DNA of 64,000 bases from an uncultured Bacilli bacterium (GTDB taxonomy: Bacteria; Bacillota_I; Bacilli_A; RF39; UBA660), in the NCBI GenBank assembly GCA_934168005.1, contig CAKPMN010000002.1, positions 13,876 through 77,875 on the forward strand. The letters run 5' to 3'. The notes beneath the pieces are model-generated. The model saw nothing but the letters and a program-made list of their open reading frames with translations, did not search any database and was not told the DNA's origin. Every line of letters starts with the position of its first letter. Position 1 is the stretch's first letter. Position numbers and translations under genes: made by a program. Positions 232 to 11,175 of the stretch are shown one piece after another.

Positions 232-1158
232 TTAAATATCAAGTTGTTCATATTTTACTAAAACTTTATTTCTGCCAGACTCTTTAGCAATATATAATTG
301 CTCATCTGCTAATTGAATTGTTTTGTCAACCACATTGTCAATACCATTCTCTTTTACCAATTGTTGCAAGCAAGCATTGTTTACATGAACAACGCCGAAG
401 CTACAAGATAAGTCAATGAATTTATCCTTATATCTAAAGGGAATAACAGCAAGTCTTTTTCTTAAATTTTCAACTCTGTTAAATACACATTTTTGCTTCA
501 TATTTTTTAATATAAATAAGAATTCTTCTCCACCAAAACGTCCTATAATATCATTTTCTCTACCAAACCCATGACGAGAATTTCTTAGAAATAATTGCGC
601 TATATAATAAAGAGCAGCATCACCTGCTTGATGTCCATAAGAGTCATTAACTTTTTTAAAATGATCAATATCACTCATTACAACAGCGAAATCTTCCTCA
701 GTATCAATAGCACTAGCTAAATATATTTTATAATCTTCTAAAAGCTTACGTTTTAAAAATACACCTGTTGTCTCGTCTATTTGATATGCTAATTCTTTCT
801 TTTTATACTCAGTAATATCTGTAAATCTTAATATTGTATAAGTATGCTCATTTTCTGAATGTCTTATTTGACTAATTTTATAGTATCTTTTTGTTTGTGG
901 GTGATAATATTCATCATTAGTAACTGTAAGACAATTTCTCATATAACTAATAATGCCATTATCTTCTGGAAATATAATGTTTCCACTTTCGTCATAAACT
1001 ATGACTAATGTATCAGGAAAACATTCCAAAAAAGTCCTTAATTCCATATAATCCCCCTCTTTTTCAGCTAAATTTGTATTAATGTACAACGTTTTAAAAA
1101 TTTTGTCAACTTTACTAATCAAATATAACAAAAATGCATACATAGATATTATATTCAA
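232..1158 (-). CDS. GGDEF-domain diguanylate cyclase with N-terminal sensor-like region
   Basis: RFGGEEF active-site motif and surrounding GGDEF-domain context (HQAGDAAL, DIIGRFGGEEFLFIL). Confidence 0.8.
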   Translation of the reverse strand: MNIISMYAFLLYLISKVDKIFKTLYINTNLAEKEGDYMELRTFLECFPDTLVIVYDESGNIIFPEDNGIISYMRNCLTVTNDEYYHPQTKRYYKISQIRHSENEHTYTILRFTDITEYKKKELAYQIDETTGVFLKRKLLEDYKIYLASAIDTEEDFAVVMSDIDHFKKVNDSYGHQAGDAALYYIAQLFLRNSRHGFGRENDIIGRFGGEEFLFILKNMKQKCVFNRVENLRKRLAVIPFRYKDKFIDLSCSFGVVHVNNACLQQLVKENGIDNVVDKTIQLADEQLYIAKESGRNKVLVKYEQLDI

Positions 1159-1162
1159 AAAA

Positions 1163-1196
1163 AACTAATCTATTACAAGATTAGTTAATATATCAT
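1163..1196 (-). terminator. Rho-independent terminator hairpin (9-bp stem AACTAATCT/AGATTAGTT, T-run on minus strand); copy A of a duplicated 34-bp element
   Basis: Inverted repeat plus poly-A on plus strand (poly-T on minus). Near-identical copy at 3588-3621. Confidence 0.55.
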
Positions 1197-1214: not shown

Positions 1215-3524
1215 TCAACTAAATATATCATCTATTTTATCCCACTCACTATTGCTTATTTCAAAAAAATATTCTTTCCCATAAGTATTAGCTTGCCAAT
1301 CATAGTATTCATTATCAATATAAGATTTAATAGAATCTTCAATATTAACGTTGCTTAGAATGTAATCTTCATCTATTTGTTTATTATTTAAATTAAATGG
1401 TAAAGCATCAGTAATGCGCTTAATTCTAACTCTGATTTTCTGTCTGATATCATCTCTTATATCATTGTAATATTTATTTATATATAATCTTTCTAAATCT
1501 TCTAGTTTTCCACTTGCAGGCATTCTTATGTCATAATTTATAGCAGATATTTCTGAAGTTACAAATTCCTGAATGTCATCATTAATGTTATCTAAAACAA
1601 AATTTTGTATAGCGTCTATAAATTGTTCATTAATAATATTATTTTCAGTATTAGTTAATTTTTGCGACTTTACCCATTTAGAGAATATTAATATATTGTC
1701 GTAAGAAAAATTATATAATGTATGTCTTAAATCTTTAAAGATTATCTCATTCAGTTCATAAAAATCGACATATCCTTTTTCTATTAATTCTATAAATAAA
1801 TCATCTTTTCCATAGTGATAATCACAACATAATTGTTCAAATGCTTTTTGAACAAATGATTTGATTTTTAAATCTTTAATTTGATATTCCAATATTATTT
1901 CAAAATAACGACATGAAGTAGACTTATCTACAGACTCTAAATTATTAATATGATTGTTATAAATTAATTCACAAATTATATCCTTATTTTGTTTAAATTT
2001 AATCAGTTGTTCAATATATTTAGCATTATTAATAATTACAAATTGTTCATTTAAATTAGCTGATATTTTTTTCTTCAAAAAATCATTAACAGATGGATTT
2101 ATAACAGAAACATATCTTTTTCGTCTATCAATTATTATCTTTATTAAAGAGTTATTTAATCTATTAATTACTTCATTGAAAATATTTAAAGTTGTATCCT
2201 TTGTATTAGATAGTATTCTTTTATTAAAAGCCTTTTCTAAAATTTCTATTTTGATTTTATCATTTGTGAGTGAATAAAGTGTATTCATTAAGATTCTATC
2301 ATCTTCACTAAGTCTATTTCTAAACTCGTCTTCCCATACACTATCAGGATTATCTAGTTTTGAAATAATATATTCTACATATTCATTTTTTAAAACTTTA
2401 CTATAGTTTTTTTCTTTAGTAACAAATTCTATAATTCTGGGATTATAGTTTTTATGTTTGACTATTGAAAGATAGTTTTTATTTTTTTTAACATCTAATA
2501 AATATTCTATAGGTATTTCATTAAAATAAAGATGATTATATAGTATCTGTGCTTTTTCTAAAAAAGACATTTTATCTAAGTCTATAAGATAATTATCTTT
2601 TTCATACTTATCAAATAAGTTTGCAAAATCTAGTGAAGAAGAATAAGCTTCATTAATTATAGTAATTCTACTATTCATAATTATCTTTTTATTGGGATTT
2701 TTTTCAATGAATGAAATTAAGGCTTTTAACTCATTAGGCTGTTTTTCACTTAATTTTAAATAATGCTGTCCTAAAAAATCATCCAGTAAAACTATCTCTT
2801 TTTTAGCAGGATCACGACTCAATATATTTTTAATATCTTTTATATTATTATCAGTAACATATCTAACAGTATAATTATTACTAGCAAAAAATAACAGTAA
2901 CATTTTAGAAATAGTACTTTTACCAACACCAGGTGCTCCTATAATAATTATAATGTTTTTATCTATTAACTTTTTTCTACATTCAAAATACGAATTTGTG
3001 GTAACAAATAACTTTGTATACTTTTCTATTTCACCTAATATTTCATTGCAATCAACAAAAATACTTTGATTTTGAATCATAGATAAAACATTAGTAGAAC
3101 ATAACCACAATTTATAGTTTTTTTCCAATATATCCTTATTGTTAGTATTAGATAAAAAATCATCAATATCAGTTTTATCAATTATGTAAGACATATCTTT
3201 CATATAGTTTGAAAATAATGAAAAAATCTCTTTTTTTTGCTTAGGAGTTAATTCTATACTACAACAAATATAATAGTTTTCTGGATTTATTTTTTCAATT
3301 TTTACTAGCTCAGATTTTAATGATGATTTTAAATTAGTGAAGTTGCTTTTAACATAATGCTTAACCTGTATAATATGATGAGGCGGAACTTTACTATCAC
3401 ATAAGTCTATTCCACCATCACGTCCCTTTGTAAAACGATGCAATTTCAAAGACAATTTAGCTTCCATTATATCTTTGCATAGAATTTCAAATTCATAATC
3501 ATTCAAATTTGCTAGGCTATACAT
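1215..3524 (-). CDS. Mrr-like restriction-endonuclease-fold domain fused to P-loop NTPase (STAND/AAA-like) with alpha-helical C-terminal region; candidate single-protein defence factor
   Basis: N-terminal FEILCKDIMEAKL...GRDGGIDL...IIQVKHY matches the Mrr_cat D-(E/Q)xK pattern. Walker A GAPGVGKST and Walker B IVLLDDFLG. Long K/N/E-rich helical tail. Confidence 0.6.
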   Translation of the reverse strand: MYSLANLNDYEFEILCKDIMEAKLSLKLHRFTKGRDGGIDLCDSKVPPHHIIQVKHYVKSNFTNLKSSLKSELVKIEKINPENYYICCSIELTPKQKKEIFSLFSNYMKDMSYIIDKTDIDDFLSNTNNKDILEKNYKLWLCSTNVLSMIQNQSIFVDCNEILGEIEKYTKLFVTTNSYFECRKKLIDKNIIIIIGAPGVGKSTISKMLLLFFASNNYTVRYVTDNNIKDIKNILSRDPAKKEIVLLDDFLGQHYLKLSEKQPNELKALISFIEKNPNKKIIMNSRITIINEAYSSSLDFANLFDKYEKDNYLIDLDKMSFLEKAQILYNHLYFNEIPIEYLLDVKKNKNYLSIVKHKNYNPRIIEFVTKEKNYSKVLKNEYVEYIISKLDNPDSVWEDEFRNRLSEDDRILMNTLYSLTNDKIKIEILEKAFNKRILSNTKDTTLNIFNEVINRLNNSLIKIIIDRRKRYVSVINPSVNDFLKKKISANLNEQFVIINNAKYIEQLIKFKQNKDIICELIYNNHINNLESVDKSTSCRYFEIILEYQIKDLKIKSFVQKAFEQLCCDYHYGKDDLFIELIEKGYVDFYELNEIIFKDLRHTLYNFSYDNILIFSKWVKSQKLTNTENNIINEQFIDAIQNFVLDNINDDIQEFVTSEISAINYDIRMPASGKLEDLERLYINKYYNDIRDDIRQKIRVRIKRITDALPFNLNNKQIDEDYILSNVNIEDSIKSYIDNEYYDWQANTYGKEYFFEISNSEWDKIDDIFS

Positions 3525-3587
3525 ATATGCCTCCTATATTCATACTAATATTTGTTTGTCTAATACAATTATAAATCTTTTTTTACA

Positions 3588-3621
3588 AAAAAACTAATCT
3601 ATTATAAGATTAGTTAATACT
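3588..3621 (-). terminator. Rho-independent terminator hairpin downstream of tRNA-His (minus strand); copy B of the duplicated 34-bp element
   Basis: Same stem AACTAATCT-loop-AGATTAGTT with a single loop substitution (c/t). Followed by T-run on minus strand. Confidence 0.6.
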
Positions 3622-3626
3622 CAATA

Positions 3627-3703
3627 TGGGGCGCTCTGTGGGGATCGAACCCACGCATGCCTGAGTCACAGTCAGGTGTGTTAACCGCTTCACCAAGAAC
3701 GCC
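3627..3703 (-). tRNA. tRNA-His (anticodon GTG)
   Basis: Reverse complement gives a cloverleaf: acceptor GGCGTTC.../...GCGCC-CCA, anticodon loop CTGTGAC, T-loop GGTTCGATCC. Confidence 0.8.
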
Positions 3704-5468: not shown

Positions 5469-5518
5469 GAAAGATAAAATCTTTCTTTTTTTTATAGTAT
5501 AATGAACTTGGTGATAAT

Positions 5519-6106
5519 ATGAAACCATATATGTATGCTTTAAAAAATGCATTGCTATTGGTCCCAATAGTTTCATTAATATTTTTAATAATATACATTA
5601 AACAAGATAAAACAAAGATAAATCATAAGAAAATGATAAGCTTGTATTTCTTTATATTATATATAATTGTTATGTATTTTTTAGTAATATTTCCCCTACC
5701 ACCAATTAGTGAAGTAAAAAATTATACATCAAATTATGTTCAACTAGAGCCACTTTATACAATAAGATATCTAAAAGAAAATATGAGTTTTAACGTTTTT
5801 AATATTGATTCATACATACGCCTCATTAAAAATGCCTATTTTTACCAATTTATATATAATATCTTAATAACAGTTCCATTTGGAATGTATTTAAAAAAAT
5901 ACTTTAGATTGAACCTATTTAAAACAATATTATCTACATTTATATTAAGTTTATTTTTTGAACTAACACAGTTATCTGGTTTATATGGGGTATATCTAAG
6001 ACCATATAGAATATTTGATGTAGATGACTTAATAACAAATACGCTTGGAGGAATAATAGGATATTTTATAAGTGATATAATAAATAAAACAAGAAAGAAG
6101 TTTTGA
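5519..6106 (+). CDS. VanZ-like family membrane protein
   Basis: Multi-TM protein with VanZ C-terminal motif FDVDDLITNTLGGIIGYF. Confidence 0.65.
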   Translation: MKPYMYALKNALLLVPIVSLIFLIIYIKQDKTKINHKKMISLYFFILYIIVMYFLVIFPLPPISEVKNYTSNYVQLEPLYTIRYLKENMSFNVFNIDSYIRLIKNAYFYQFIYNILITVPFGMYLKKYFRLNLFKTILSTFILSLFFELTQLSGLYGVYLRPYRIFDVDDLITNTLGGIIGYFISDIINKTRKKF

Positions 6107-6124
6107 ACATAATGTTCAAAACTT
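6099..6124. terminator. 26-bp perfect palindrome AAGTTTTGAACAT/AATGTTCAAAACTT overlapping the VanZ-like stop codon; terminator and/or operator
   Basis: Perfect inverted repeat followed by T-rich tract. TGTTCAAAA/TTTTGAACA motif recurs at about 6186, 6235 and 6168 in the same intergenic region. Confidence 0.4.
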
Positions 6125-6289
6125 TTATTAAATAGCTATAAAAAAGAACAAAAAAGTGTTATAAATAGTTCAAAAAATGTTTAAATGTTCAAAAATAATA
6201 GAAAATTAGTAAAAAATAATAGAATAAATTGTATTTTTGAACATTTGATATTCAAAAATAACCAGTGTAAAATCTAAATTGGTGAAGTT

Positions 6290-7945
6290 ATGAACAATAT
6301 TAGGTATATATCATTAAAAGAGTTAGATAATCAGATTAATAATTTAAAAATAGATAGTAAAAATCCGATAAGAATATTGATAAACAAATATAAAGTAGTA
6401 AAAAAACAAAGAGAAAGAATCTTAAATAATAAAAAATATATAGAACAAAAAGTAATGGAAAATAAAGCGTTATTAGAAAATATAAAAGGTTGTAGATTAG
6501 ATAAAGAACAAACAAAAGCAATAATAATAGAAGAAGATAGTTGTCTTATAATAGCTGGAGCAGGTTCTGGAAAAACTCTAACTATGCTTGGGAAAATAAA
6601 ATATTTAATAGAAGTAAAAAAAATAGATCCATCAAAAATATTATGTTTATCATTTACTAATGCTATAACTGAGGATTTAAAAGAAGCAATAAGAGAAGAA
6701 ATAAATGTAGAAATGAATGTGTTAACTTTTCATAAACTTGGTTTAAAAGTATTAAAAGAAAACAATGTGAATGTAAAAATAATAGAAGAAAAAGAACTAA
6801 TAAATATAACAGAAAACCATGTAAAAAAATTGAATAAAAATGAAGTATCAAAATATTTTAAAACAGAATTGGATCTAGAAAAACTTATATTAACTTTTAT
6901 AAATTTGTATAAATCTGGAGAATACAAAGACTTAAAAGAAATAAGCAACAAAATAGAAACTGAAAAAAATAGATTTATTAAAAAAAGAAATAAGTATGTA
7001 TTTAAAATAATAACAGATATATACAATATATATCAAAAAAAATTAGAAATGGAAGAAAAAATTGATTTTAATGACATGATAAATGAAGCATCATCACTAA
7101 TAGAAGAAGGATATAATTACCCTAAATATGATTACATAATAGTAGATGAATATCAAGATACATCATATATTAGATATAAGTTATTAAATTTAATAAAAGA
7201 AAAAAACAACTGCCCTATCTTGGCTGTTGGAGATGATTGGCAATCAATATATAGATTTACAGGATGTAATATAGAAATGTTTATAAATTTCAAGAAATAT
7301 TTTAAATATAGTTATATTACCAAAATCCAAACAACATATAGAAATCCCCAAGAATTAATAGATATAGCAGGACTTTTTGTTATGAAAAATCCAAATCAAT
7401 ATAAGAAAAATTTAAAATCAAATAAGAGTTATAATAAACCAATAAAAGTATTTCTCTATGAGTCAGAAGAAGAAATAGATTATATACTAAAAGAAATACC
7501 AAAAGATAGAAAAAGAATCCTTTTATTAGGGAGAAATAATAACGATTTTAAAGATATCAACATAAAAGATAATAGAGTAGAAAAAATGACAGTTCATAAG
7601 TCGAAAGGATTACAATGTGATACGGCAATAATAATAAATCTAAAAAACAGTATAAATGGGTTTCCAAATCAAATGGTAGATGACATTATATTTAAATACC
7701 TATTAAAACAAGATATATATCCATTCGAAGAAGAAAGAAGATTATTCTACGTAGCATTAACAAGAACTAAAAATGAAGTATATCTTTTTTCTCCAAAAAA
7801 TAATCAATCTATTTTTGTAAAAGAACTAATTACATCATTTGAAAATAAAATAGAAATATTATCAAAAAATAATTATTGTCCTCTATGCAAAAATAGATAT
7901 ATTAATAATAAGTGTCCCATTTGTAAAAAGAAAAATATGTTATAA
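6290..7945 (+). CDS. Compact UvrD/Rep/PcrA-family SF1 helicase with C-terminal CxxC-N7-CxxC zinc ribbon
   Basis: Motif I AGAGSGKT, motif II IIVDEYQD, motif III VGDDWQSIYRFTG, motif V TVHKSKGLQCD, motif VI YVALTRTK. Terminal CPLCKNRYINNKCPICKK. Confidence 0.7.
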   Translation: MNNIRYISLKELDNQINNLKIDSKNPIRILINKYKVVKKQRERILNNKKYIEQKVMENKALLENIKGCRLDKEQTKAIIIEEDSCLIIAGAGSGKTLTMLGKIKYLIEVKKIDPSKILCLSFTNAITEDLKEAIREEINVEMNVLTFHKLGLKVLKENNVNVKIIEEKELINITENHVKKLNKNEVSKYFKTELDLEKLILTFINLYKSGEYKDLKEISNKIETEKNRFIKKRNKYVFKIITDIYNIYQKKLEMEEKIDFNDMINEASSLIEEGYNYPKYDYIIVDEYQDTSYIRYKLLNLIKEKNNCPILAVGDDWQSIYRFTGCNIEMFINFKKYFKYSYITKIQTTYRNPQELIDIAGLFVMKNPNQYKKNLKSNKSYNKPIKVFLYESEEEIDYILKEIPKDRKRILLLGRNNNDFKDINIKDNRVEKMTVHKSKGLQCDTAIIINLKNSINGFPNQMVDDIIFKYLLKQDIYPFEEERRLFYVALTRTKNEVYLFSPKNNQSIFVKELITSFENKIEILSKNNYCPLCKNRYINNKCPICKKKNML

Positions 7946-7961
7946 TATCAAAGGTGGTATT

Positions 7962-8228
7962 ATGAATTTAACAGATGAACAAATAAAAAAAATAGTAAAA
8001 GAAGAATATAATCAAAAACAAATGCATAAAATAAGAGAGAACGGATTATTCCTTTCAGATAATGAAATAGATTTATTGAAAAGATATGGTATAGATTATA
8101 AGAACTATTCAAATATTATGCAACTAATATATAAGATAGATGAGATAAATGAAGATGACGATGAAGAGCTAGATTCACTAGCATCATACTTGTCAGAACA
8201 ATACTACTATAATAATGTCAATAAATAG
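7962..8228 (+). CDS. Hypothetical small acidic protein, likely co-transcribed with the helicase (17-bp gap)
   Basis: ORF with upstream GGTGGT RBS. Asp/Glu-rich C-terminus. No recognisable motif. Confidence 0.4.
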   Translation: MNLTDEQIKKIVKEEYNQKQMHKIRENGLFLSDNEIDLLKRYGIDYKNYSNIMQLIYKIDEINEDDDEELDSLASYLSEQYYYNNVNK

Positions 8229-10268: not shown

Positions 10269-10357
10269 GCCTGAGTGGCGAAATTGGTAGACGCACAGGA
10301 CTTAAAATCCTGCGGGAGTCAAATCCCGTGCCGGTTCAAGTCCGGCCTTAGGCACCA
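10269..10357 (+). tRNA. tRNA-Leu (anticodon TAA), long variable arm
   Basis: Acceptor GCCTGAG/CTTAGGC-A-CCA, anticodon loop CTTAAAA, T-loop GGTTCAAGTCC. Confidence 0.85.
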
Positions 10358-10366
10358 TAGAAAATT

Positions 10367-10390
10367 AACGGACTTTGTCCGTTTTTCTTT
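10367..10390 (+). terminator. Terminator hairpin AACGGAC-TTTG-TCCGTT plus T-tract after tRNA-Leu
   Basis: Stem-loop followed by TTTTTC. Confidence 0.5.
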
Positions 10391-10427
10391 TGCAAAAATA
10401 CTTTTAATAAAAAAAATAAAAAAACTC

Positions 10428-10456
10428 TTGCCAAACAAAACACAACATGTTATAAT
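10428..10456 (+). promoter_or_regulatory. Sigma-A promoter (TTGCCA-17-TATAAT) for the tRNA-Ser...Pro transcription unit
   Basis: Near-consensus -35/-10 with 17-bp spacer, about 30 nt upstream of tRNA-Ser. Confidence 0.55.
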
Positions 10457-10487
10457 TTGTTATGTAATTGCCACAACTGGTGATATT

Positions 10488-10578
10488 GGAGAAATACCCA
10501 AGTTCGGTTGAAGGGACCGGTCTTGAAAACCGGGAGGTCGGAAACGGCGCGGGGGTTCGAATCCCTCTTTCTCCGCCA
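10488..10578 (+). tRNA. tRNA-Ser (anticodon TGA), long variable arm
   Basis: GGAGAAATACCCAAG... anticodon loop CTTGAAA... T-loop GGTTCGAATCC ... CTCCGCCA. Confidence 0.85.
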
Positions 10579-10587
10579 TTTAAATAT

Positions 10588-10664
<77 letters not shown>

Positions 10665-10665
10665 T

Positions 10666-10742
10666 GGTTCGTTAGTCTAGAGGCCTATGACGTCTGCCTG
10701 TCACGCAGAAGACCACGGGTTCGAATCCCGTACGAACCGCCA
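10666..10742 (+). tRNA. tRNA-Asp (anticodon GTC)
   Basis: Acceptor GGTTCGT/ACGAACC-G-CCA, anticodon loop CTGTCAC, T-loop GGTTCGAATCC. Confidence 0.85.
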
Positions 10743-10750
10743 TTTATTTT

Positions 10751-10826
<76 letters not shown>

Positions 10827-10866
10827 TTTATTTTTGATTAATATTACAATAATTGGTTTGGCAATT

Positions 10867-10943
<77 letters not shown>

Positions 10944-10946
10944 TAT

Positions 10947-11023
10947 CGGGAAATGGCTCAACTTGGTAGAGCACTTGGTTTGGGACCAAGGGGTTGCAGG
11001 TTCAAATCCTGTTTTCCCGACCA
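10947..11023 (+). tRNA. tRNA-Pro (anticodon TGG)
   Basis: CGGGAAATGGCTCAACTTGGTAGAGC, anticodon loop TTTGGGA, ...TTTCCCGACCA. Confidence 0.85.
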
Positions 11024-11033
11024 TTTAGAATTT

Positions 11034-11057
11034 AACGGATATAATCCGTTTTTTTTA
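11034..11057 (+). terminator. Terminator hairpin AACGGAT-ATA-ATCCGTT plus T8 after tRNA-Pro
   Basis: Stem-loop plus TTTTTTTT. Stem sequence related to the hairpin after tRNA-Leu. Confidence 0.55.
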
Positions 11058-11099
11058 TTGCAAAATCAAGTATATTTGGGTAAAATAATAGTATATATT

Positions 11100-11175
11100 G
11101 TTTACATAGCTCAGTTGGAAGAGCATTTCCCTCCGAAGGAAAAGGTCATCAGTTCAAATCTGATTGTAAACACCA
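11100..11175 (+). tRNA. tRNA-Arg (anticodon CCG)
   Basis: GTTTACATAGCTCAGTTGGAAGAGC, anticodon loop CTCCGAA, acceptor TGTAAAC-A-CCA. Own TTGCAA/TAAAAT promoter upstream. Confidence 0.75.

Follow-up and report, generated by a model that had tools for sequence, protein, structure and literature searches.

A Mrr nuclease-nSTAND3 protein encoded beside tRNA-His in an uncultured Bacilli bacterium is a candidate Avs-type defence protein

Results

The gene and its motifs

The DNA analysed here is a stretch of 64,000 nucleotides (the window) of contig CAKPMN010000002.1 from an uncultured Bacilli bacterium. Near its beginning, next to a gene for tRNA-His, lies a complete open reading frame (ORF) on the minus strand that encodes a Mrr-type nuclease fused to an nSTAND3 NTPase and a variable helical tail, referred to below as the Mrr-nSTAND3 protein (Table 1). 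An earlier interpretation based on the DNA letters and their translations (the sequence-only reading) had proposed this gene as a compact antiphage system resembling the STAND/Avs-type defence ATPases. The ORF list contained the gene exactly as described there (1215-3524, minus strand, 769 aa). A ribosome-binding site, AGGAGG, was located at 3530-3535, 5 bases from the ATG, and a consensus promoter scan gave no convincing promoter for the gene.

All motifs that had been quoted for the protein were found in their places, namely FEILCKDIMEAKL at residues 12-24, GRDGGIDL at 33-41, IIQVKHY at 51-57, GAPGVGKST at 196-204 and IVLLDD at 244-249. Conservation was measured on an alignment of 62 full-length homologues with 41-78% identity. 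In the nuclease, where D...QxK is the Mrr variant of the PD-(D/E)xK motif, residues G34, D36, G38, D40, Q53 and K55 were invariant and E13 was conserved in at least 90% of the homologues. Invariant were also G196, P198, G199, V200, G201 and K202 of Walker A and D248 and D249 of Walker B, and R286 was counted among the active-site residues that are intact across the alignment. The quoted motifs are real and go beyond chance resemblance.

Table 1. Positions of the Mrr-nSTAND3 gene, its protein regions and the flanking features in the window.
Feature	Position	Strand	Description
Complete ORF, Mrr nuclease + nSTAND3 NTPase + variable helical tail	1215..3524	-	ATG start, 769 aa, PADLOC PDC-S73 family
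Mrr-type PD-(D/E)xK nuclease domain, residues 1-112	3189..3524	-	Core alpha-beta-beta-beta-alpha-beta
Catalytic motif codons	3360..3419	-	D36 and D40 at 3405-3419; Q53-V-K55 at 3360-3368; E13 upstream at 3486-3488
Helical linker between nuclease and NTPase, residues 113-190	2955..3188	-	Conserved; K138-L139-W140 and D158 invariant
Nucleotide-binding domain (NBD), residues 191-335	2520..2954	-	Walker A GAPGVGKST 2913-2939; Walker B IVLLDD 2778-2795; then sensor-like N284-S285-R286
Helical domain and winged-helix domain of the STAND module, residues 336-476	2097..2519	-	Conserved H357-x-N-x-N-P-R363 and W397-x-D-E400; winged helix with beta-hairpin
All-helical variable C-terminal region, presumed sensor, residues 477-769	1218..2096	-	Two very long helices, 625-662 and 674-707
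tRNA-His (GTG)	3627-3702	-	ARAGORN; 102 nt upstream of the start codon
Upstream copy of the direct repeat	3562..3619	-	9-bp hairpin + U7, terminator-like, just after tRNA-His; -8.5 kcal/mol, z -2.3
Downstream copy of the direct repeat	1133..1190	-	Hairpin + U8, 25 nt after the stop codon
Integration site core (CAATATGGGGC)	3621..3632	.	Duplicated on either side of the 8.7-kb serine-recombinase element in L104

Domain architecture and conservation

Profile searches against Pfam and PADLOC, which had been proposed with the sequence-only reading, matched the protein to nSTAND3, Mrr_cat and the PADLOC family PDC-S73. Pfam nSTAND3 (PF20720) was found at residues 173-334 (E 1.4e-39) and was matched by all 62 homologues. 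The Mrr_cat match at residues 5-59 reached 23 bits against a gathering cut-off of 21 bits, and it was shared by 56 of the 62 homologues with a best E of 4e-8. Because the weak Mrr_cat match is a property of the family, the N-terminus can be accepted as a PD-(D/E)xK fold, the lack of which had been named beforehand as an outcome that would speak against the reading. The Pfam search detected no SIR2 domain in the protein, the N-terminus being Mrr, and no Mrr_N, SRA, YTH or other modified-base reader domain. Neither a Pfam repeat nor TPR was found anywhere in the 769 aa, the C-terminal region included. In NCBIfam only P-loop matches below threshold were obtained, with no family for the protein and no housekeeping family.

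AlphaFold2 (AF2) gave a full-length model with a mean pLDDT of 84.3 and a pTM of 0.69, in which the protein falls into five parts. The mean pairwise identity among the homologues was highest in the NBD (65%), followed by the helical domain (59%), the linker (55%), the nuclease (54%) and the winged helix (42%), and it dropped to 32% in residues 477-620 and to 23% in residues 621-769. Many more distant relatives could be aligned only across residues 1 to ~510. Judged from the alignment, this gradient is the one that would be expected of an NLR-like receptor with a putative sensor under diversifying pressure. A helical tail of roughly 450 aa had been described for the protein. This part is indeed predicted to be mostly helical, but about 140 aa of it belong to the conserved STAND module and only about 290 aa are variable. 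With a STAND module of NBD, helical domain and winged-helix domain, an N-terminal effector with an intact predicted active site and a C-terminus that diversifies faster, structural features of Avs-type proteins in the broad sense are present.

Family membership and distribution

Over nearly its entire length the protein was found to belong to the PADLOC family PDC-S73 (PDLC05079; E 7.9e-138, 459 bits, residues 2-769 against positions 4-750 of the 752 in the profile), and in length and architecture it is the same as that family, with nothing structurally different. The suggestion that it is possibly undescribed must therefore be dropped, as the protein is a full-length member of PDC-S73, which has already been published as an untested candidate family. 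The PDC systems are 145 "phage defence candidates" that were identified through "guilt by embedding" within loci of BREX, DISARM and Type I restriction-modification (RM) systems (Payne et al., bioRxiv 10.1101/2024.01.29.577857). Membership in PDC-S73 labels the protein but does not tell its function.

The family is large, its members are of uniform length (~770 aa), and it has 3451 clusters at 50% identity when E<=1e-3 is applied, of which 1942 have E<=1e-30. A pattern-limited scan of 185,579 species, with one genome per species, yielded 235 relatives. They were mostly from Clostridia and Bacilli, and fewer came from Fusobacteria, Bacteroidota and one spirochaete. Plasmids, too, carry homologues: 47 were found, of which 25 are conjugative, and their hosts include rhizobia, Streptomyces and Leptospira. 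The distribution of the family is patchy and mobile.

The first ~197 residues (Mrr plus linker, residues 2-197) additionally matched the PADLOC models Aga_TIR-PNTD1-PNTD2 (E 6.5e-27) and Aga_REase-TIR-PNTD1-PNTD2 (E 4.7e-20), which we take to be effector proteins associated with short pAgo (Argonaute). If this is what the models represent, the cassette of Mrr and linker has been reused in another class of defence.

Genomic contexts of relatives

The family is associated with defence and mobile-element genes. In raw counts, the 142 ORFs that lie no more than two genes from a homologue in 38 loci include 10 ABC ATPases of the AriA/GajA/Old type, 5 OLD-TOPRIM proteins, 4 tyrosine integrases, 4 resolvases, 3 Fic proteins and 2 each of RloB, SIR2 and C5 methylases. 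In Enterococcus faecalis the homologue adjoins an OLD-TOPRIM ATPase and a DUF2130 protein. In Mycoplasma sp. CAG:776 it lies next to an integrase in an integrase/resolvase island, together with a Schlafen-like helicase and ABC-3C components, and there too it is downstream of a tRNA-His. The contexts of relatives were mutually unrelated, and thus did not point to a housekeeping ATPase family with a conserved context, the other outcome that had been named beforehand as speaking against the reading.

One relative is carried by the temperate Clostridium phage HM T. Its gene HMT_19 (L105:6001-8364; L numbers denote the compared loci) encodes 787 aa with 43% identity over residues 1-597 and is annotated as "restriction endonuclease". 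It sits between the replication genes and the late genes of the phage and is likely a prophage-borne exclusion or defence gene.

A complete gene for a YunG-type uracil-DNA glycosylase (UDG) was seen directly upstream of the Mrr-nSTAND3 gene in four loci (L017:7088-10316, L018, L023:201-3435 and L024:9085-12319). Relatives with this arrangement are the closest ones, at 65-78% protein identity, and in L017 the two genes are ~14 nt apart. They may be organised as an operon. The pair is not present in the window.

The locus in the window and in its species

The Mrr-nSTAND3 gene is bracketed by a direct repeat of 58 nt with 81% identity, the copies of which start 2429 bp apart. The 30-nt core of the repeat occurs exactly twice in the window, against 0 occurrences expected by chance. 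On the coding strand each copy has a 9-bp hairpin followed by 7-8 U, with z of about -2.3 to -2.6. The hairpins were folded directly, as the consensus terminator scan misses AT-rich hairpins with fewer than three G-C pairs. Since both copies fold into terminator-like hairpins, the terminator of tRNA-His appears once before and once after the gene. The 2429-bp cassette with its duplicated terminator is a genuine insertion signature.

The sequence-only reading had combined an insertion signature with the adjacency to a tRNA. The tRNA-His and the bracketing repeat are real, but adjacency to a tRNA is not a trait of the family, since any tRNA within 10 kb was found in just 8 of 60 loci. Here it is a feature of the tRNA-His integration hotspot of this lineage. 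A dip in GC content (0.20-0.23) was also considered as an insertion signal and was rejected; the dip is real, but the window is equally low at 5500-8000.

The gene was present in all of ~20 metagenomic contigs of the same species, between GGDEF and tRNA-His/CotJB. Alleles from ~10 metagenomic strains were ~99% identical with few amino-acid changes. In one allele (L003:3379-5688, the same as L009) a nonsense codon, E430*, splits the gene into ORFs of 429 aa and 287 aa. The allele has either become a pseudogene or results from an assembly error. A junction in which the two repeats have collapsed into one was not found in the metagenome contigs with an exact-pattern scan, which is a weak negative as it needs an exact match.

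An integrative element at the tRNA-His and its cargo

In other strains the 3' end of the tRNA-His is the attachment site of an integrative element. The homology between the window and the strains L002 and L104 breaks at 3620/3621, and both strains carry an 8.7-kb element at this position (L104:1084-9784), flanked by a duplicated 14-bp sequence (TTTCAATATGGGGC) that contains the 3' end of the tRNA. Accordingly, L104 aligns at 1-1083 to the window at 2550-3632, and from 9785 on to the window from 3621 on. The element carries a large serine recombinase of 451 aa, two metallo-beta-lactamase (MBL)-fold proteins, a DUF218 protein, a YunG-type UDG and a KAP NTPase of 858 aa. Both MBL-fold proteins match Pfam Anti-Pycsar_Apyc1, and the KAP NTPase matches PADLOC PifA (E 1.2e-34) and QatA.

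The same element family was found at the tRNA-His of a sister species, L022, whose Mrr-nSTAND3 protein is 78% identical (element at L022:3511-12410, 92-94% nucleotide identity). In this element Mrr-nSTAND3 is the last gene and occupies the slot that is held by the PifA-like KAP NTPase in L104. A truncated UDG gene lies just upstream of it, and the terminal 58 nt of the element and the attachment (att) core lie downstream. L022 and L104 together are a clean natural example of the swapping of defence cargo within one element family.

Other genes around the locus

The neighbours of the gene are GGDEF, tRNA-His and CotJB, and no Argonaute gene was found nearby. The cassette is followed downstream by a gene for a GGDEF diguanylate cyclase (232-1158, minus strand), one for a small protein with a RelA/SpoT domain (L001:13381-14001), and then lgt and uvrB. 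The genes gidA, gidB and parB lie within ~10 kb, which places the locus close to the chromosomal origin. At 6290-7945 on the plus strand a UvrD-like helicase of 551 aa with a C-terminal CxxC...CxxC zinc ribbon is encoded, at a position kept in all strains. It matches the PADLOC models RTasHel (E 2e-52) and GajB and is without a GajA-like partner. Eight tRNA genes (Leu, Ser, Met, Asp, Phe, Arg, Pro, Arg) at 10269-11175 on the plus strand account for a local GC peak of 0.47-0.51 in a window that otherwise has 20-33% GC.

Comparison with known systems

The AF2 model was compared with solved structures in the PDB by Foldseek, structure prediction and fold comparison having been proposed with the sequence-only reading. 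Avs4 with phage portal came first (8dgf, E 1.9e-7) and the filament chains of AVAST5 second (9nc9, E 3e-6, ~740 aligned columns, 764-769 aa), so that Avs4 and Avs5 were the best solved-structure matches. Further matches were the plant NLRs NRC3 and NRC4, human SAMD9 and Apaf-1. The folds closest to the nuclease domain included those of AspBHI and MspJI, which are modification-dependent, and of LlaBIII, an ATP-dependent Type ISP enzyme.

Avs5 (EfAvs5, PDB 9JAP; 9NC9; PaAvs5) has the same overall fold and belongs to the same nSTAND3 family, this Pfam domain having been reported in the literature for PaAvs5. Like the protein studied here it is tripartite, with an effector, an NBD-helical domain-winged helix module and a helical sensor. 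It also falls in the same size class of 764-849 aa, and the protein can therefore not be called far smaller than described Avs proteins, as it had been: the Avs5 chains in 9nc9 have 764-769 aa and EfAvs5 has ~849 aa. According to the literature EfAvs5 is activated by filament formation and needs to bind ATP via K379 of Walker A, D426 of Walker B and TTR453. By position, K202, D248 and N284-S285-R286 would correspond to these residues. However, the effector of Avs5 is a SIR2 NADase of ~300 aa, whereas here it is a Mrr nuclease of ~110 aa, and the predicted output is DNA cleavage instead of NAD+ depletion. Unlike Avs5, the sensor here has no detectable TPR or Sel1 repeats. Avs5 is mainly found in Gram-negative bacteria, whereas the hosts of Mrr-nSTAND3 are mainly Bacillota, and no sequence-level match to Avs5 was obtained (PADLOC at E<=1, PDB sequence and profile searches at E<=10). 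The protein is not Avs5, as it has no SIR2 and no sequence-level match.

With Avs4 (EcAvs4, 8DGF), which consists of a Mrr-like nuclease, a STAND module and a TPR sensor of the phage portal, the protein shares the folds of nuclease and NBD. It would also share the logic proposed below, in which a nuclease effector is activated by sensor-driven oligomerisation. However, Avs4 is twice as long (~1540 aa) and has a large TPR sensor; it belongs to a different STAND clade, gave no sequence-level or PADLOC match, and there is no indication of portal sensing here. The protein is not Avs4, since size, sensor and NTPase clade differ.

Two further groups share the N-terminal part. In the Mrr effectors associated with short pAgo the cassette of Mrr and linker is homologous, but here it is wired to a STAND switch, without TIR, APAZ or PNTD. 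The Type IV enzymes Mrr, MspJI and AspBHI have the catalytic fold and the D...QxK motif in common with the protein. They combine the nuclease with a reader of modified DNA and have no STAND NTPase, whereas the protein has the STAND module and no detected reader.

Discussion

Taken together, we propose that the gene encodes a single-polypeptide, NLR-like antiviral STAND protein of the Avs type, most likely acting by abortive infection, and we consider this proposal to be probably correct. The domain reading, with a Mrr-type nuclease, a P-loop STAND NTPase and a helical sensor-like tail, and likewise the reading as a candidate for single-gene, Avs-like defence, held in all computational tests that were run. 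The nonsense allele E430* was counted in favour of the proposal, as such loss is common for costly defence genes.

In an uninfected cell the monomer would be autoinhibited, with the NTPase module of NBD, helical domain and winged-helix domain closed and the Mrr nuclease inactive because it is monomeric. Residues ~477-769 would bind a molecule encoded by the phage, most likely a protein. Binding would open the module and allow self-association in the NTP-bound state through the NBD and the winged-helix domain, either into a tetramer, like Avs3/4, or into a filament, like Avs5. This would bring the Mrr domains together into active dimers, which would then cut double-stranded DNA without sequence specificity, so that the infected cell is killed or arrested before phage release. 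For its trigger, oligomeric state, substrate and protective phenotype, this scheme follows the analogy with Avs4 and Avs5.

Several observations weigh against the proposal. At its one chromosomal site the gene is nearly fixed within the species, and same-species look-ups via CotJB and GGDEF always showed the gene and never an empty site. No Avs/AVAST model was among the PADLOC matches at E<=1, and PDB searches by sequence and profile, made with the whole protein, the family profile and an N-terminal profile, returned nothing past the P-loop. Neither a repeat nor a known sensor fold can be recognised in the C-terminal region, so that a protein ligand is an assumption. In addition, Payne et al. 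(bioRxiv 10.1101/2024.01.29.577857) themselves call the PDC set untested. In the searchable literature we found no paper that names PDC-S73, the supplement text of Payne et al. included, and no experiment on this protein or on any member of PDC-S73.

The relatives that databases label "restriction endonuclease" suggest another function, that of an NTP-dependent and modification-dependent restriction enzyme similar to Type IV. Such an enzyme would itself scan incoming DNA and cut modified or unusual bases with its Mrr domain, the NTPase would be a clamp or a switch that is not of the NLR type, no phage protein would be sensed and the cell would survive. The fold neighbours of the nuclease (AspBHI, MspJI and LlaBIII) and the winged-helix domain of the AF2 model are consistent with this, and the YunG-type UDG that directly precedes the gene in each of the five closest relatives hints at a connection with DNA base chemistry. 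However, the UDG association is confined to a single small clade and comes with the carrier element, as the UDG of L104 adjoins a KAP NTPase. Moreover, the NTPase is a STAND module (nSTAND3) and not a McrB-type GTPase, an SF2 translocase or a GHKL module, a modified-base reader domain was not detected, and the hypervariable C-terminus fits protein-sensing NLR-like receptors and not base readers. We therefore judge a restriction enzyme of this kind to be unlikely.

The mobility of the family could also mean that the protein serves the elements that carry it, as a weapon that excludes competitors or as a stabiliser that punishes loss of the carrier, with the copy in the window being a stranded relic of little present function. 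It is cargo of the tRNA-His element in L022, has an integrase as neighbour in Mycoplasma sp. CAG:776, resembles a moron gene in phage HM T and occurs on the 47 plasmids mentioned above, more than half of them conjugative. The window copy has no recombinase and is flanked just by the duplicated terminator, and one strain has a premature stop. However, the allele in the window is intact with all catalytic residues and is 99% conserved in ~10 strains, which argues for a maintained function, and no antitoxin-like partner gene accompanies it. Such a role would differ from the proposed antiviral one in beneficiary and not in mechanism, and Avs genes borne on prophages and islands do protect their hosts. 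This explanation appears to us less likely again, and improbable overall. A housekeeping or regulatory STAND ATPase for DNA repair or transcription, with a nuclease-like domain that is dead or only binds DNA, would suit the region near the origin (gidA, gidB and parB within 10 kb), beside uvrB and the UvrD-like helicase, and the near fixation of the gene in the species, but it is very improbable and already largely refuted by the context data, as the catalytic residues are invariant across the family, no NCBIfam housekeeping family and no helix-turn-helix output domain is present, the contexts differ wholly between relatives, the pattern scan shows a sporadic occurrence (235 of 185,579 species), and members are found on plasmids and phages.

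Within the antiviral proposal, Mrr-nSTAND3 might be a compact Avs family in its own right, carried by Gram-positive bacteria and by their mobile elements. Its short helical sensor without repeats, with two long helices and no TPR, would then serve a class of trigger not yet assigned to any Avs, and its nuclease would be activated by an Avs5-like filament, a pairing not yet described. We put this forward tentatively, with a small chance of being right. More speculative still is a variant for the clade of this gene, in which the upstream YunG-type UDG would act together with the protein in the sensing of phage DNA that contains uracil. A 2026 survey in Nature gives 589 STAND clades, 198 of them associated with defence, and names Avs7-24; the eLife 2021 paper in which the nSTAND names were introduced does not take up nSTAND3 in its main text.

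The protein belongs to a catalogued and widespread candidate family built on the known Avs plan of effector, STAND and sensor, and it is not a new kind of system. The call made by the sequence-only reading was sound, but compactness and novelty were overstated. Current concepts would be unchanged even if the protein proves active, as its architecture and logic are those of known Avs proteins. An active protein would provide a validated Avs-type sensor from an uncultured, low-GC gut member of the Bacillota, a group in which there are almost no STAND immune receptors with known triggers. In that case a widespread PADLOC candidate, with thousands of clusters and with members on plasmids and in a temperate phage, would become a characterised system.

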